Below are positions 23,738 to 39,620 of a DNA stretch of 64,000 bases, piece by piece (the stretch's first letter is position 1; every line of letters begins with the position of its first letter). Both the position numbers and the translations under genes were made by a program. This DNA is from Octopus vulgaris (lineage: Eukaryota). Where the stretch lies: contig OX597823.1 in NCBI GenBank assembly GCA_951406725.2, forward strand, positions 14,322,001-14,386,000. Direction: 5' to 3'. The notes beneath the pieces were generated by a model. That model did no database searches and was not told the origin of the DNA. It saw only the letters and a list, made by a program, of their open reading frames with translations.

Positions 23738-23741
23738 TACA

Positions 23742-23972
23742 TATTTCTTTACTATCCACAAGGGGCTAAATACAGAGGGGACAAAAAAGGACAGACAAAC
23801 GGATTAAGTCGATTACATCGACCCCAGTGAGTAACTGGTACTTAATTTATCGACCGCGAAAGGATGAAAGGCAAAGTTGACCTCGGCGGAATTTGAACTC
23901 ATAACGTAATGGCAGACGAAATACGGCTACGCATTTCGCCCGGCGTGCTAACGTTTCTGCCAGCTCGCCGCC
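23742..23972 (-). mobile_element. SINE family A monomer
   Basis: Full head-core-tail on the minus strand. Confidence 0.9.
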
Positions 23973-24370: not shown

Positions 24371-24391
24371 CGTAGTAATATATGTTATTAA

Positions 24392-24788
24392 GACGGCGAA
24401 CTGGCAGAAGCGTTAGTACGCCGGGCGAAATGCGTAGCGTATTTCGTCTGCCGTTACGTTCTGAGTTCAAATTCCCTCGAGGTTGACTATGCCTTTCATC
24501 CTTTCAGGGTAGATTAAATAAGTACCAGTTACGCACTGGGGTCGATATAATCGACTTACTCCGTGTGTCTGTCCTTGTTTGTCCTCTCTGTGATTGGACC
24601 CTTGTGGGTAGTAAAGAAATAGGTATTTCGTCTGCCACTATGTTCTGAGTTTAAATTCCGCCGAGGTTGACTTTACCTTTCATCCTTTCGGAGTTGATAA
24701 ATTAAGTACCATTTGCGTACTGGGTCTATCTAATCGACTGGCGCCTTCCCAAAAATTTTAGGCCTTGTGCCTAGAATAGAAAAGAATA
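24392..24788 (+). mobile_element. SINE family A dimer
   Basis: Headed unit plus headless unit, joined at 24622/24623. Ends in the alternative tail. Confidence 0.85.
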
Positions 24789-25099: not shown

Positions 25100-25140
<41 letters not shown>

Positions 25141-25219
25141 AGTTGAGTTGTGGGGTATCGCACGAGTGGGATTATATAAGAAAAAAGGTTTGAAAATGCA
25201 ATTTAAACGATGTTTATTT

Positions 25220-25260
25220 ACTTAACCGGTTTCACTCTTTGGTAAAAGATTGTCAAAAGT
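25220..25260 (-). ncRNA. Variant minimal hammerhead ribozyme in the 3' pLTR
   Basis: The minus strand reads ACTT-TTGACAA-TCTTTTACCAAAGAGT-GAAAC-CG-GTT-AAGT: stem I ACTT/AAGT, U3-A8 core, stem II hairpin, palindromic ACCGGT stem III. Confidence 0.7.
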
Positions 25261-25273
25261 TACATTTAAGGAA

Positions 25274-25500
25274 ACATTGAATAATATGGGTTCAAAAAAG
25301 TTTTTTACATAATTGTCACATTGAATATTATGCATTCAAAAAAGTTTTTTACATAATTGTCACATTGGATATTATGGGTTCAAAAAAAGTTTTTTACATA
25401 ATTGTCACATTGAATATTATGCATTCAAAAAAGTTTTACATAATTGTCACATTGGATATTATGAATTCAAAAATGTTTTTTTATACATAATTGTCACATT
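25274..25500. repeat. ~44-bp tandem repeat x5 inside the pLTR
   Basis: Unit ACATTGAATATTATGCATTCAAAAAAGTTTTTTACATAATTGTC. Also present in both other pLTR copies. Confidence 0.9.
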
Positions 25501-26063
25501 ATTTGGGAAAATTTGGCAGAAAAGGATAAAACAAATATATTATTGGGAATTGGTTGCGTTAATTATTGGTTGTCGCAAATTGTCACATTACATGTATATA
25601 TATACAATCTATGGTATATATATACAGCGTTTTGACAGCAAAAATTAAAATGGCTTTTTTGTACATCTCAGAATATTTTAAGTATGTTTTTACTGACCTG
25701 TCAGTATTAGCAGAAAGGCTGAACTGAGAGAACAGAAGAAGTAGCCAATGTGGTGTATACTTCCCCTTTATGCATGAATGATTTTGGGGTTATCAGGAGG
25801 TTAGTATGCGGGTGTGAATAGATGTGTCTGTGCCTGCTGGTCAGACAGCGTCTGTTTGTCACACACATATATATACACACAAACACACACACACACAACA
25901 ACACACACACACACACACATAGTATACAAACACACACCACATACAAACAACACACACACACACAGAACACACACACCCACACACAACGCACCCACATATA
26001 TCACATATACACACAGCACACAAATATAACATGTATCTATATATAACATACACAGATATATAA

Positions 26064-26133
<70 letters not shown>

Positions 26134-26918
26134 TACATAATATAAATATCACACAAATACACCTAGCATATATATACACACACATACAATACACACATAC
26201 AGCATGTAAGTAATATATATACACAATATATGCATGCAATATACATACGTAATACATACATATAATATATATATATATAGACAATGCATATACATATATA
26301 CACATATACATATAAATAGTGTTTACATACACATACATAGATGTACCACATATACACATAACACACATACATACAATGCATACACATACACATACGCATA
26401 CATATAATATATATATACACACACACACACATAACATACATACACACACAATGCATACATATATATACACACAATGCATATACATGTATTCATGCACATA
26501 TAACACACCTACAATATACATATATACAGTGCACACATACACACAAATATATACACTTAATTGTACACGTACATATACAATACACATACATACAATATAC
26601 ATATACACAATGCGCATGCAAATAATGTACATGTTTATACACACATAAACATGCAAATAAATATACACACACACACATACACACACACACATATATATAC
26701 ACATATATATATATATACACACATACATACATACATACATGCACATACATATATTTTTTCACACACATACACACACATATATATATAAAAAATTCACCAC
26801 CCCCACACACACAAATTACAAACCTATAGCGTACACACTCAAATATATCTCTACATGCCGCACATACACACAAACAAAGTACTAACATATACACACATAC
26901 CATGCATATACACACACA

Positions 26919-26966
<48 letters not shown>

Positions 26967-27138
26967 AGATACATATGTAAATACATACACACGTACACAA
27001 TGCTCACACACACACACACACACACATACACACACACCCGCACACAGTGCACACACACACACACATATATACACACGTGCACACACACACACACATACAA
27101 CGCGCGCACACACACATATACACACACACGCACACAGT

Positions 27139-27170
<32 letters not shown>

Positions 27171-27355
27171 CACTCACACACATACATCACCTACATATAT
27201 ATAATGCATGCGTGTGCATGCCACGTATGTGTGCGGTCAATGCCCGCTAGTGTGTCCTATGCGTGCCGATGCGCGCATGTGCCCGCCCGCACGATATGCT
27301 GTGAGCGTGCGCGCGTCCCTGTGTGCTTGCTCTGGATGTGCTTCCAGGGGGTATG

Positions 27356-29632
27356 TTAGAGTATGTTTAGTTGTGGTCTGTATTTTTGAATAAGATTACT
27401 TTCCTTATTTATTCGTGTTTGGTCTGTGGTGTTGTCCGAGCATTGGTATAGTGGGAAGACTAAGAATTTGGGGGACTTATTGTGTGCACAAAGGTCTAAG
27501 TGTCCACTTAGTGGTATCTGTCTTGTGGAGGGGTCCCTCAGTTGTTGTCGGTGAACTGTCATTCTGTCTCTGAGGGTAAGGCTCGTTTGCCCTATGTAGT
27601 CTTCGTGGCATCCTTCACACCTTATGACGTAGAGTAAATTTTTTGATGCGCACGTGAAGTTATTTTTTATGATGAATGTGTGTCCCGAGTGGAACTTGTA
27701 CGACGATCCCTCAATGAGGTGGATGCGGGTCTTACAGTTGGGGCGACCACATTTTTTGATGGTGGGCGGTGGGTTTGTGTTGTGTAATTTTGCGTTGGTG
27801 AGGAGGTTTTTTAGGGATTTAGGTTGTCTCTTACTTTTTATTATTTTATGAGCTGCCAGTATTTTTTTCAGGCGTGGGTCTTGATTTAGTTGTGGAATGT
27901 TGTTGTATATAATAGTGTAAGCTTCTGCATTCCTTGGGTTGTGTGTTGAGAGATAAGGGAGGCTATTGACTGTACTGTGGATGTGTTTGGGTTTTCGAAG
28001 GTCTTGAATGTTGATTGATTTGGCCCGTTCTATTCCGTTGTCTACTAGTGATGCCGGGTAATGTCTTTCGAGAAGAATTGCCCTTAGTTCCCGGAGTCTT
28101 CTATTTCGTGTTGTGTCATTTGAGACAATAGTGCAGATTCTTCTCGCTAGGTTGAAGGGGATATTTGTCTTTGTGTGTTTTGGGTGATTGGAGGTGAATA
28201 GAAGGTATTGTTTAGAGTCAGTGGGTTTGTAATGGATGTCAGTTTCAATGTTGACGCCTTTTTTAATGATTAGGATGTCAAGAAAAGGGAGTTGGTCCTG
28301 ACTATATTCCATTGTGAATTGAATGTTGTTATTTACACTGTTGATAAGGTTTTTGAAGTCTATAAGTTGGTCGAGTGTGTGGGACCATAGGATGAGGCAA
28401 TCATCTAAGTAGCGTTTCCAGTTCTCCAACAGGTATTTGTGGAAAGACTGGCCGTACTTATATTTGGATTTTTCATAGATATGTGATTCCAGGTAGGCCA
28501 TCACCAGGTTTGCATAGGTAGGTGCAACTTTCGTACCCATTGCAGTCCCTGAGACCTGTCTGTAAGTGTTGTTGTGGAAATACATGAAGTTGTTTTGCAG
28601 AATAAATTTGAGGCCCTCAATTATGAATTCTTTTTTAATTCTTTCCGGGATCTCATTGGGATATTTATCCAGCCAGAATTTAATGGCTTCCAGTCCAAAT
28701 TCATGTGGGATTGTGGTGTAAAGATTAATAACATCAAAAGAAACGATTAAGGTGTCTTTATCGGCATGTTTGGGGAGATGGTTTAATAGGTCCAGGTCAT
28801 CTCTTACAATACTTGGAATGTGTTTCAGTATTGGCTTTAAGATGATATCTATAAAGTTGCTAAGTCTGTGTGTTTCACAACTTGGGCCTGCCACTATTGG
28901 TCTCAGTTTGAGATCAGTGGGATGTGGTATAGTGATGCAGGTTGAAGTGGACTTTTTGCAAGCTTCTGTGATAATTTGACTCTTGTGTATTTTTGGAAGC
29001 CCATAGAGTGTGCTGGTTTTGCAATTAAATTTAGTAATGTAGTCGCATTCCTTTGCTGTCAAGTCATTCCGGTGTTGGTAAATGAGTGCCTTCAGATTGG
29101 TCATTGTTTTGGATTGCTGGTAGTCGACTACTCTTTCGTAGTATGTGGTATCCTCTAAAAGGAGAGATACAGAGTTTTTATACTGCTCAGTATTCATAAT
29201 AACGACCGTACTACCCTTATCAGCTTCCTTTATTGTGACGTCATGATTGTCTCGTAGCGTATGGATGATTTCCCATTCTCTTTTACTGGTGTTGGGTTTG
29301 AGTTTAGGTTGTGGGAGTTCACCATAAGGGAAGTTGGAGATGTAATCGCAAAATTTGTCTAAGGTTTTGTTTTTGCCTTTTATGGGATTATAGTTGCTTT
29401 TGTTACAGACCATTGATTCGTCGTTATTATTAGTTTTTCTGTCAAAAAATTCCTCTGTGAGGCGTAATTTTCTGCAAAAGTGCGAGATGTCATCCTGTAT
29501 TTCCCTCAGGTTAGGGTATTGCGGAGTTGGGGTGAATTTTAGTCCTCTTGAAAGGATTTTTATTTGTGGTGTCGACAGGTTTAGGTTAGAAAGATTCACT
29601 ATTTTTGGTTTTTCGGGGTTGGTATCTACCAT
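27356..29632 (-). CDS. Penelope-like reverse transcriptase plus GIY-YIG endonuclease (ORF2, 758 aa)
   Basis: IVNLS...LSRGLKF N-terminal motif, LYGLPKIHK, LRPIV, SFDVINLYT, QVSGTAMG, RYLDD, LPFLDI, Cys linker CGRPNCKT(R)...C, LLYVIRCEGCHEDYIGQT, R..VH. Uninterrupted. Confidence 0.97.
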   Translation of the reverse strand: MVDTNPEKPKIVNLSNLNLSTPQIKILSRGLKFTPTPQYPNLREIQDDISHFCRKLRLTEEFFDRKTNNNDESMVCNKSNYNPIKGKNKTLDKFCDYISNFPYGELPQPKLKPNTSKREWEIIHTLRDNHDVTIKEADKGSTVVIMNTEQYKNSVSLLLEDTTYYERVVDYQQSKTMTNLKALIYQHRNDLTAKECDYITKFNCKTSTLYGLPKIHKSQIITEACKKSTSTCITIPHPTDLKLRPIVAGPSCETHRLSNFIDIILKPILKHIPSIVRDDLDLLNHLPKHADKDTLIVSFDVINLYTTIPHEFGLEAIKFWLDKYPNEIPERIKKEFIIEGLKFILQNNFMYFHNNTYRQVSGTAMGTKVAPTYANLVMAYLESHIYEKSKYKYGQSFHKYLLENWKRYLDDCLILWSHTLDQLIDFKNLINSVNNNIQFTMEYSQDQLPFLDILIIKKGVNIETDIHYKPTDSKQYLLFTSNHPKHTKTNIPFNLARRICTIVSNDTTRNRRLRELRAILLERHYPASLVDNGIERAKSINIQDLRKPKHIHSTVNSLPYLSTHNPRNAEAYTIIYNNIPQLNQDPRLKKILAAHKIIKSKRQPKSLKNLLTNAKLHNTNPPPTIKKCGRPNCKTRIHLIEGSSYKFHSGHTFIIKNNFTCASKNLLYVIRCEGCHEDYIGQTSLTLRDRMTVHRQQLRDPSTRQIPLSGHLDLCAHNKSPKFLVFPLYQCSDNTTDQTRINKESNLIQKYRPQLNIL

Positions 29633-30969
29633 CTGGTGTCGTGGAAACTGATGCCCTTGCCTAAAAAAGGAATCCTGGGGGTTCTTCTATTTGCGGTATT
29701 TTGCTGTATGTGATTCTGTCCCCCGTTGACATGTCTGTTGAAGAGGTTTTGGTTGTTGTGATTCTGTCCCCCGTTGCTATGTTGTCTGTTGAGGAGGTTT
29801 TGGTTGTTCCAGGGTCTGGGTTGTTGGTGTGGCCTCCTGGAAGAGTTTTGGTTATTCCAGGGTTTGGGTTGTTTGTCCTGGGTGTAATGTTGGTTCCTTA
29901 GAGTGGGTTGGAAACTATATTCATGGTTTAGGAGTGAATTCCTATATGTTGGGGGAGAACTCTGAGTTAGGAGCGGTTTGGGTTGGAATCTACAATCATA
30001 GTTCAGAGATGGGTTTCTAAGTGATGGGTAGGATCTCCGAATCTGGAACGGTTCTTGTGTGGGTTGGGGTCTACGTTGTCTGGTAAAGTTTTGTCGTGTG
30101 ATGATGGGTGTCTCGGTTCTTTTGATGGGATTGTAGTGCTGTCTGTAAGTTCTGTTGTTGTTGTTGTCGATGTTAGGGGTGGTGTGTGTTCGGTGTTTTG
30201 TGGTTGGTTTTCTTTGTTTTTGGCGAGGGGTGTGAGTTGAAGTAGATATTTTAAAATATGGGTTGCTTGAAAGGTGTTCCTTTGTGAACTCTGTTTCATA
30301 ATTGGTGAACCAGCTGTTTTTTTCCCTTCGCTGGAGGGATGTTATTTCTTCATCCTCGCAGTTTTTTCTCCAGAGTTTGGTGGTTTCATCAAGGAGTGCT
30401 CCTTCACAGTGTTTTGAGATTTCAATCTGCATTTCATTGTCAAGGGTCTTGGATTTTTCTTCACTGGTGTTGGCTCTGAGCCGCAAGAGTTCTACTTCCG
30501 TTTTGAATTTTTCAAAAGCTAGTTTCTCCCTGAGGTTTTTTGGTTTTCTGGTTCATTTTGGATGGGTTTTATTTGTAGTTTTCTGGGTAGGATGATAGGG
30601 GTGGAGTTGAGCCACTTTTCATAAATGTCAGCTTTGTTGTTATTTTTTATGAAATTCCAGAAGGCAAACTTACGCGCTTTGAGATTTTTACTCCAGGTGT
30701 TGTTAAGAGAGATTTTTAATTGAGAAGCAGTCTTTAGTTTGCTCCTGCTTTGGGAGCACTGCCGTCTCTATGGATTTCATTAGGTTTTGCAGTGTTGGGA
30801 TGATGTCAGGGATTTGATTGGTTGTTTTGGCCTCCATGAGTCCATTTAGGTATAAGTGCGATTGTTCGACTTTGTTTATTATGGTTGAAAGTTTCGAGGA
30901 GATTTCTTGTAATTCTTTTAGGATATTTTGGTTCATTAAAGATTCTGCTTGTTGTGATTTGGGTGGCAT
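29626..30969 (-). CDS. Upstream ORF1 of the PLE (~447 aa; coiled-coil N-terminus, N/Q/R/P-rich C-terminus), broken by two compensating frameshifts
   Basis: ATG at 30969 (MPPKSQQ) lies just past the 5' pLTR. ORFs 30703-31029 and 29626-30486 share a frame and are bridged by an open alternative frame (LNNTWSKNLKARKFAFWNFIKNNNKADIYEKWLNSTPIILPRKLQI). Shifts at ~30705-30770 and in an A-run near 30540. Confidence 0.7.
29662..29668 (-). promoter_or_regulatory. Candidate -1 ribosomal frameshift slippery heptamer U_UUU_UUA
   Basis: ORF1 codons ccU UUU UUA GGC AAG. The -1 frame is open from here into the ORF2 ATG at 29632. Confidence 0.7.
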
Positions 30970-31085
30970 TTTCGGGACTCGTGTGATGTTTATATATATA
31001 TAAAAAAGTTGAGTTGTGGGGTATCGCACGAGTGGGATTATATAAGAAAAAAGGTTTGAAAATGCAATTTAAACGATGTTTATTT

Positions 31086-31126
31086 ACTTAACCGGTTTCA
31101 CTCTTTGGTAAAAGATTGTCAAAAGT
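31086..31126 (-). ncRNA. Variant minimal hammerhead ribozyme in the 5' pLTR (sense to the ORFs)
   Basis: Identical to 25220-25260. About 115 nt upstream of the ORF1 ATG. Confidence 0.7.
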
Positions 31127-31758
31127 TACATTTAAGGAAACATTGAATAATATGGGTTCAAAAAAAGTTTTTTACATAATTGTCACATTGAATATTATGC
31201 ATTCAAAAAAGTTTTTTACATAATTGTCACATTGGATATTATGGGTTCAAAAAAAAGTTTTTTACATAATTGTCACATTGAATATTATGCATTCAAAAAA
31301 GTTTTTTACATAATTGGCTACTTCTTCTGTTCTCTCAGTTCAGCCTTTCTGCTAATACTGACAGGTCAGTAAAAACATACTTAAAATATTCTGAGATGTA
31401 CAAAAAAGCCATTTTAATTTTTGCTGTCAAAACGCTGTATATATATACCAAAGATTGTATATATATACATGTAATGTGACAATTTGCGACAACCAATAAT
31501 TAACGCAACCAATTCCCAATAATATATTTGTTTTATCCTTTTCTGCCAAATTTTCCCAAATAATGTGACAATTATGTATAAAAAAACATTTTTGAATTCA
31601 TAATATCCAATGTGACAATTATGTAAAAAACTTTTTTGAATGCATAATATTCAATGTGACAATTATGTAAAAAACTTTTTTGAATGCATAATATTCAATG
31701 TGACAATTATGTAAAAAACTTTTTTGAACCCATATTATTCAATGTTTCCTTAAATGTA

Positions 31759-31799
31759 ACTTTTGACAATCTTTTACCAAAGAGTGAAACCGGTTAAGT
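31759..31799 (+). ncRNA. Variant minimal hammerhead ribozyme in the inverted pLTR
   Basis: ACTTTTGACAATCTTTTACCAAAGAGTGAAACCGGTTAAGT read directly on the + strand. Confidence 0.7.
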
Positions 31800-31838
31800 A
31801 AATAAACATCGTTTAAATTGCATTTTCAAACCTTTTTT

Positions 31839-31887
<49 letters not shown>

Positions 31888-38962: not shown

Positions 38963-39620
38963 AGGCGGCGAGCTGGTAGAAACGTTAGCACACCGGGCGA
39001 AATGCGTAGCCGTATTTCGTCTGGCGTTACGTTCTGAGTTCAAATTCCGCCGAGGTCGACTTTGCCTTTCATCCTTTCGGGGTCGATAAATTAAGTACCT
39101 ATTTCTTTACTACCCACAAGGGGCTAAACACAGACAGGAGAAACAAGGACAGACAAACATATTAAGTCGATTACATCGACCCCAGTGCGCAACTGGTACT
39201 TAATTTATCGACCCCGAAAGGATGAAAGGCAAAGTCGACCTCGGCGGAATTTGAACTCAGAACGTAACGGCAGACGAAATACGCTATGCATTTCGCCCGG
39301 CGTGCTAACGATTCTGCCAGTTCGCCGCCTGGGGTCGATGTAATCGACTTAATCCCTTTGTCTGTCCTTGTTTGTCCCCTCTAAGTTTAGCCCCTTGTGG
39401 GCAATAAAGAAATAAGAAACGTTAGCACGCCGGGCGAAATGCTTAGTGGCATTTCGTCTGTCTTTGCGTTCTGAGTACAAATTCCGCCGAGGTCGACTTT
39501 GCTTTCATCCTTTCGGGGTCGATAAAATTTAGTACCAGTTGCGTACTGGGGTCGATCTAATCGACTGGCCCCCTCCTCCTCCAAAATTTCGGGCCTTCTG
39601 CCAAGAGTAGAAAAGAATAT
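38963..39620. mobile_element. SINE family A cluster (+ copy interrupted by a - copy, then a + unit)
   Basis: 38963-39098 (+), 39099-39329 (-), 39330-39620 (+). Confidence 0.85.

Follow-up and report, generated by a model that had tools for sequence, protein, structure and literature searches.

How does a retrotransposon obtain its enzyme when the frame that encodes it overlaps the preceding frame out of phase? The question is raised by a Penelope-like element (PLE) of about 6.2 kb that lies between (TA)n runs on the minus strand of a 64,000-nucleotide (nt) stretch of Octopus vulgaris DNA (assembly GCA_951406725.2, contig OX597823.1, positions 14,322,001 to 14,386,000). This stretch is referred to here as the window, and coordinates given without a locus name are positions in it. 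The first open reading frame (ORF1) is followed by ORF2, which by its domains encodes a reverse transcriptase (RT) with a GIY-YIG endonuclease (EN) at the C-terminus. Comparative sequence evidence suggests, with a probability of about 0.85, that the ORF2 enzyme is made by programmed -1 ribosomal frameshifting at U UUU UUA, a slippery heptamer close to where ORF1 ends. The reading is favored because the phased heptamer and the -1 offset are kept in 17 family representatives, and because 56 genomic copies carry the exact six-T junction, versus none with the seven-T form that would fuse the two frames.

At the junction the minus strand reads ...att ccT TTT TTA GGC AAG..., and the heptamer (29668-29662) is correctly phased to ORF1, as the original prediction had claimed. 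The translations also confirm that ORF2 lies in the -1 frame, and a phased heptamer of the form X XXY YYZ, the mark of programmed frameshifting, sits in the overlap with this -1 ORF. ORF2, said to be open from the heptamer, is in fact open from six codons upstream of it; its frame extends over 776 codons from stop to stop, and its AUG (29632-29630) lies inside AUGGUAG, overlapping the ORF1 stop. The C-terminus of ORF1 reads P-F-L-G-K-G-I-S-F-H-D-T-R-W-stop. The stop is near the heptamer, as foreseen, at 13 codons after Phe and 40 nt from the heptamer start rather than at 12 codons. Through UUUUUUAG (29661-29663), 11 of the 17 representatives have a UAG in the third frame, which would halt any -2 or +1 slip immediately.

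Most ribosomes would terminate 11-12 codons past the heptamer and release an ORF1 protein (ORF1p) of 447 amino acids (aa), and a minority, with tRNA-Phe and tRNA-Leu on the site, would slip back one base and continue into an ORF1-RT-GIY-YIG fusion of about 1,204 aa. This size, counted from the translations, bears out the ~1200 aa first proposed, and slippage would set a gag:pol-like ratio of ORF1p to fusion. UUUUUUA is also the HIV-1 frameshift site (excerpts of PMC12086091), and the logic leading from a structural protein to an enzyme is shared with HIV-1 gag-pol; in HIV-1 a stem-loop lies downstream, whereas here none is conserved and the zero-frame stop keeps a 12-codon floor. The transframe peptide proposed for mass spectrometry, IPF(L/F)RQGHQFPR, would be cleaved by trypsin after IPF(L/F)R.

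Conservation of the junction

Thirty copies of the window family were fetched, and the junction anchor is present in 29 of them. The -1 junction is retained in 25 of the 29, and in the other four a 1-nt deletion leaves the ORFs still unfused. ORF1 is intact at 447 aa in 11 of the 30 copies. The 59 ORF2 frames that were scored are all at or below 876 codons in length, against about 1,200 for a fusion. Contigs from all four presumed-RNA runs (4/4, RNA status guessed) span the junction with neither an indel nor a joint, which supports the junction sequence itself, not its expression.

The original prediction called for the heptamer and the offset to be followed across copies and relatives, and both are kept well outside the window family. 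The 17 representatives with a phased U UUU UU(A/G) and the -1 offset consist of the window family, five further families of the same genome (53-63% RT identity) and 11 outside representatives, and together they span 27-63% RT identity; L038 was excluded as a near-copy of L037. Usable loci numbered 49 of 98 (L017 counted), the other 49 being set aside because the RT N-terminus or 250 nt of upstream sequence was missing, and 12 outside loci among the 49 have a phased site near the end of the upstream frame. At identities of at least 40%, the site is present in 8 of 10 usable outside loci, and the remaining two appear decayed. Same-genome copies without a phased site are 5'-truncated or carry single indels. 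In relatives at 24-30% identity a single long frame is the usual arrangement, and the Cys linker that joins RT and EN is absent from the three that were read at the C-terminus. Elsewhere in the 17 elements, only 13 positions out of 33,084 begin a run of six Ts, and the run at the junction is not a product of chance. The probability of the U-run from codon usage, given the amino acids, is 0.009-0.25 per family, values that are descriptive only because the set was chosen for having the run.

A quick tree built from 53 RT rows places 14 heptamer-bearing rows, together with four that lack upstream sequence, in one clade (SH-aLRT 99) that stands apart from the single-ORF relatives. The heptamer-bearing loci L048 and L055 fall in a second clade, and L039, L078, L087 and L042 were left out of the tree for their short matches. 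No relatives were found in the viral contigs searched, and a search with P0085 returned mostly its own family.

The ORF1 proteins carry a trace of the same site. In total, 155 homologs were retrieved, and the 70 of at least 330 aa were analysed while 85 shorter ones were counted apart. Phe-Leu occurs within the last 45 aa in 58 of the 70, compared with 3/70 and 5/70 in control windows, and the tails are otherwise unalignable. This count is independent of the DNA filter, and for these 58 proteins it records a peptide trace only, not a heptamer. The shorter homologs have Phe-Leu in 18 cases, one of them at distance 8. In the tails of P0168, P0182 and P0201, about as far from the end, YF-R or FF replaces FL, and these are possibly variant slippery sites.

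Competing explanations

Several observations weigh against frameshifting. The close loci L078 and L087 (five-T junction) have no in-phase site, and both look decayed. Four of the 17 representatives have U UUU UUG in place of UUA, and in eukaryotes a heptamer with a final G generally slips poorly. One L170 copy has ORF1 and ORF2 fused by an extra A (2702-2760 of that locus), downstream of the heptamer; L170 belongs to an 811-codon family, and the fused frame runs into a stop at 984 codons. In the window copy, ORF1 is broken by a pair of 1-nt indels (about 30712 and 30535), and as assembled this copy cannot yield an intact ORF1p. No 3' structure is conserved (mean z close to 0; z falls below -2 in 2/17 at 70 and 100 nt). 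Two further points would allow some initiation within the junction: many gene-called RT homologs start with Met just before the conserved region, an observation biased by the gene caller, and the spacer contains an AUG in the window family, L148 and L048. Stop-start reinitiation or internal initiation at AUGGUAG would produce a free 758-aa RT-EN and make the U-run incidental. The overlap of this AUG with the ORF1 stop in the window family, and an AUG at the same codon in family E, suit such a route. It is nevertheless very unlikely, as 14 of the 17 representatives have no AUG between the heptamer and the RT-homologous region. The first AUG lies beyond the conserved GLKFTP motif in 10/17, and at codons 151, 154 and 155 in three same-genome families, the codon-155 case being a young family with both ORFs intact. 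Reinitiation also leaves the conserved, phased U-run unexplained, and the AUG of the window family may be a by-product of a UGG codon where relatives have a stop. Given the spacer AUGs and the Met-starting homologs, reinitiation could still add to enzyme production in some families, including that of the window.

Three other explanations act on the RNA or on the sequence record, and each is less probable again. If UUUUUUAG were a 3' splice acceptor, a spliced RNA would join an upstream exon to ORF2; AG directly follows the U-run in 11/17, and PLE introns are mentioned in the Fig. 1 legend among the excerpts of PMC8557442. However, AG is absent in 6/17 where UUU UUR is still present, splicing would fix neither the frame and phase of ORF1 nor the Phe-Leu codons, and the contigs of the four presumed-RNA runs contain no joint, although contigs drop rare forms. 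RNA-polymerase slippage on T6, adding one U in some transcripts, would give the same fusion with no need for structure, and the homopolymer that it needs is precisely what is conserved. Against this very unlikely route, comparable in weight to splicing, the run is exactly six in 17/17, always phased to ORF1 and followed by A or G (Leu), and slippage needs no phase. Six Ts is also short for polymerase slippage, and the presumed-RNA contigs show no insertion, which is a weak point. The original prediction had itself named the possibility of one continuous ORF, with the offset a homopolymer error or a private indel. The other homopolymer indels in ORF1 of the window copy and the fused L170 copy lend this something, but the copy count given above, the recurrence of the offset in 17 families whose assemblies are independent and the agreement of short-read contigs leave it a negligible chance, and it was rejected.

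Candidate stimulators of the slip

If frameshifting does occur at this site, the stimulator is the next question. The stimulatory pairing first proposed, about 6 nt downstream of the heptamer, does not hold up: compared with shuffles, z is +0.64, +0.94 and +1.38 for 50, 70 and 100 nt. Pseudoknot prediction fared no better, with the best score matched by 62% of shuffles and the pairing not conserved. A local hairpin or H-type pseudoknot 3' of the heptamer is strong in only 2-3 of the 17 representatives, and none is conserved at the 5-9 nt spacing expected of a stimulator.

What recurs instead is the position of the ORF1 stop. In DNA, it lies 34-67 nt from the heptamer start in 17/17 representatives, and at exactly 37 nt in 7/17, compared with 0.6 expected by codon shuffling; a stricter null of local composition gives P of 0.001-0.01 only, for the heptamer-to-stop floor. 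In the 58 ORF1 proteins, the distance from Phe to the end is never below 12 residues, whereas the rate of stops past 12 would predict about 32 such cases; it is exactly 12 in 20 of them (4.6 expected). None of the residues between Phe-Leu and the ORF1 end is conserved.

At the 37-nt distance the stop would fall 11 codons beyond the slippery A-site codon, or about one ribosome length, and collided ribosomes protect 60-64 nt, about 10 codons each (excerpts of PMC12086091). Because of these dimensions, a trailing ribosome may meet the terminating one during translocation, and contact between the two would come about as the trailing one moves off the slippery codons. Given frameshifting, a ribosome paused at the ORF1 stop as a roadblock is thus a possible stimulator, if a somewhat unlikely one. 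A lineage-specific, long-range or protein-bound structure may be slightly better favored, and so, to the same tentative degree, may the absence of any stimulator, the bare heptamer working at low efficiency. Slightly less probable still is the wider proposal that a widespread clade of EN-bearing PLEs uses a structure-free -1 frameshift stimulated by the ribosome terminating at the ORF1 stop.

Several findings weigh against a role for the terminating ribosome. Longer tails are found in 38 of the 58 ORF1 proteins, and 19 of the 20 proteins with exactly 12 residues fall in one subclade (7 tree changes, compared with 16.8 when shuffled), so they are not independent cases. In the window family the codon at the modal stop position is UGG, and the stop follows in the next codon. 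In L102 (485-494), of the L048/L055 clade, a phased U UUA AAC is directly followed by the stop, a counter-example to the 12-codon floor with a different slippery site. In SARS-CoV-2, -1 frameshifting can be tuned by where the stop lies and by the ribosomes that trail behind, and the nearby stop there has been explained by pseudoknot refolding instead, a further point against (both from excerpts of PMC8168617). The two systems are alike in that the position of the zero-frame stop can matter; they differ in that the stop is five codons away in SARS-CoV-2, whereas here it is about one ribosome length away with no shared fold.

The element and its place among PLEs

The features of the element are collected in the table below. 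From 5' to 3' it comprises partial direct and inverted pseudo-long terminal repeats (pseudo-LTRs), ORF1, ORF2, a microsatellite-rich 3' untranslated region (UTR) and a 3' pseudo-LTR, and four other copies align across the ~6.2-kb unit.

Features of the Penelope-like element in window coordinates
Feature	Position	Strand	Remarks
Slippery heptamer U UUU UUA	29662..29668	-	in phase; read as Pro-Phe-Leu in ORF1 and as Phe-Phe in ORF2
33-nt dual-coding spacer	29629..29661	-	G-rich, U-poor, no conserved fold; contains the ORF2 AUG in the window family
ORF1 stop UAG	29626..29628	-	40 nt from heptamer start; mode among relatives 37 nt
ORF1	29626..30969	-	447 aa in intact copies; window copy broken by 1-nt indels
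ORF2, -1 frame	27356..29686	-	PLE-type RT and C-terminal GIY-YIG endonuclease; 758 aa counted from AUG
RT core	28340..28903	-	Pfam RVT_1 match, E 5.9e-8, residues 262-449 of ORF2 protein P0001
CX4CxxC linker, Neptune/Nematis type	27725..27751	-	read from translation and other copies
GIY-YIG endonuclease with CCHH motif (LLYVIRCEGCHEDYIG...H...H)	27356..27637	-	read from translation
3' UTR, mostly TG/TA microsatellite	25750..27355	-	belongs to the transposed unit
3' pseudo-LTR with 44-nt tandem repeat, terminating at (TA)n	25136..25749	-	
5' direct partial pseudo-LTR, upstream of ORF1 AUG	31002..31316	-	
Inverted pseudo-LTR copy at 5' end, then (TA)n	31313..31846	+	

By its domains the element is a two-ORF, EN-bearing PLE, of either Neptune or Nematis type. 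For the ORF2 protein 659 homologs were found, many of them marked by Pfam for RT and GIY-YIG, and the named ones are mostly molluscan, the closest being from Octopus (80%). The RT is of PLE type (Pfam RVT_1). The GIY-YIG domain with its CCHH motif was read in the translation and is the same in relatives, and the local Pfam scan gave no score for it. In the CX2-5CxxC linker between RT and EN, Arg replaces the third Cys in the window copy, all 12 other copies read have Cys there, and the linker Cys is also present in the relatives whose C-terminus was read. Pseudo-LTRs, partial tandem or inverted, and (TA)n targets are present. These features are described for EN-bearing PLEs (excerpts of PMC8557442 and PMC3846280) and are shared with Neptune and Nematis: the PLE RT, the C-terminal GIY-YIG with CCHH, the linker, the pseudo-LTRs and the (TA)n flanks. 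The difference is that canonical elements are described as single-ORF (excerpts of PMC8557442), whereas the window family and its relatives have two ORFs and a conserved slippery site.

In the excerpts of PMC12602865, a killifish Neptune has two non-overlapping ATG-called ORFs, with frameshifting unmentioned there. The Fig. 1 legend of PMC8557442, among the excerpts, states that in some PLE types a frameshift with a pseudoknot can set ORF1 apart, the clade being unnamed; the parts of its supplement consulted contain no note of a frameshift or slippery site for Neptune. Excerpts of PMC3846280, PMC6431247 and PMC5408684 hold nothing on frameshifting in EN-bearing PLEs. No report of a slippery site in such elements was found in the literature searched, and some key PLE papers outside that search may already show one. 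The EN-lacking Athena/Terminon and Coprina PLEs have no endonuclease and are telomeric, whereas the window group has an intact GIY-YIG and no conserved pseudoknot, and its copies are dispersed over many contigs. Frameshifting of a PLE ORF1 is said to occur in Athena.

ORF1 combines a conserved, Trp-rich N-terminal region of ~240 aa with a basic, low-complexity C-terminal half rich in N, R, Q and P, and ORF1p is probably an RNA-binding or particle protein. Its homologs form 464 clusters at 50% identity, so the lineage that the original prediction had considered possibly undescribed is not a small one. A Pfam scan of ORF1 and 67 aligned homologs found no family in more than one member, and a search of the ESM Atlas was uninformative (best match 0.76).

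The remaining observations concern repeats and distant relatives. The TG/TA microsatellite of ~1.6 kb (25750-27355) is a constant 3' UTR component in the four other copies. The 44-nt tandem repeat, which gave no match in an Rfam search, occurs within the pseudo-LTRs at 25250-25484, 31117-31352 and 31581-31745. A hammerhead ribozyme had no Rfam match at E up to 1, and no core of the form CUGANGA...GAAA within 40 nt was found in the element; minimal forms could escape both searches. Fragments of another dispersed repeat lie at 23738-23925, 24391-24724 and 39012-39550, in direct and inverted copies of 80-93% identity. The distant PLE-like locus L094 (1215-1254), in which no GIY motif was found, has a 395-codon ORF1 with a phased A AAA AAC 37 nt before the stop, and its spacing, a single case, fits the idea drawn above from the heptamer-to-stop distance. 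In L069, L101 and L107, also distant and with no GIY motif found, upstream ORFs of 413-771 codons overlap the RT frame in a -1 relation; phased heptamer-like runs occur in L069 and L101, and none in L107. Penelope-like elements also occur on contigs binned as bacterial metagenome-assembled genomes (L110-L127), most likely through host contamination of the bins.

Frameshifting at this junction would change the single-ORF picture of EN-bearing PLEs and would link them to the frameshifted PLEs that lack an endonuclease. A large and mostly unannotated ORF1 family would provide a gag-like partner for the enzyme, and ATG-based annotation would be truncating the real enzyme, a matter of relevance to reconstituting Neptune-type retrotransposition. 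The floor in the heptamer-to-stop distance offers a natural case for asking whether collided or terminating ribosomes stimulate -1 frameshifting without RNA structure. If they do, the amount of enzyme made would depend on how densely ribosomes are packed and how fast they terminate, and nature would offer hundreds of variants of the arrangement.

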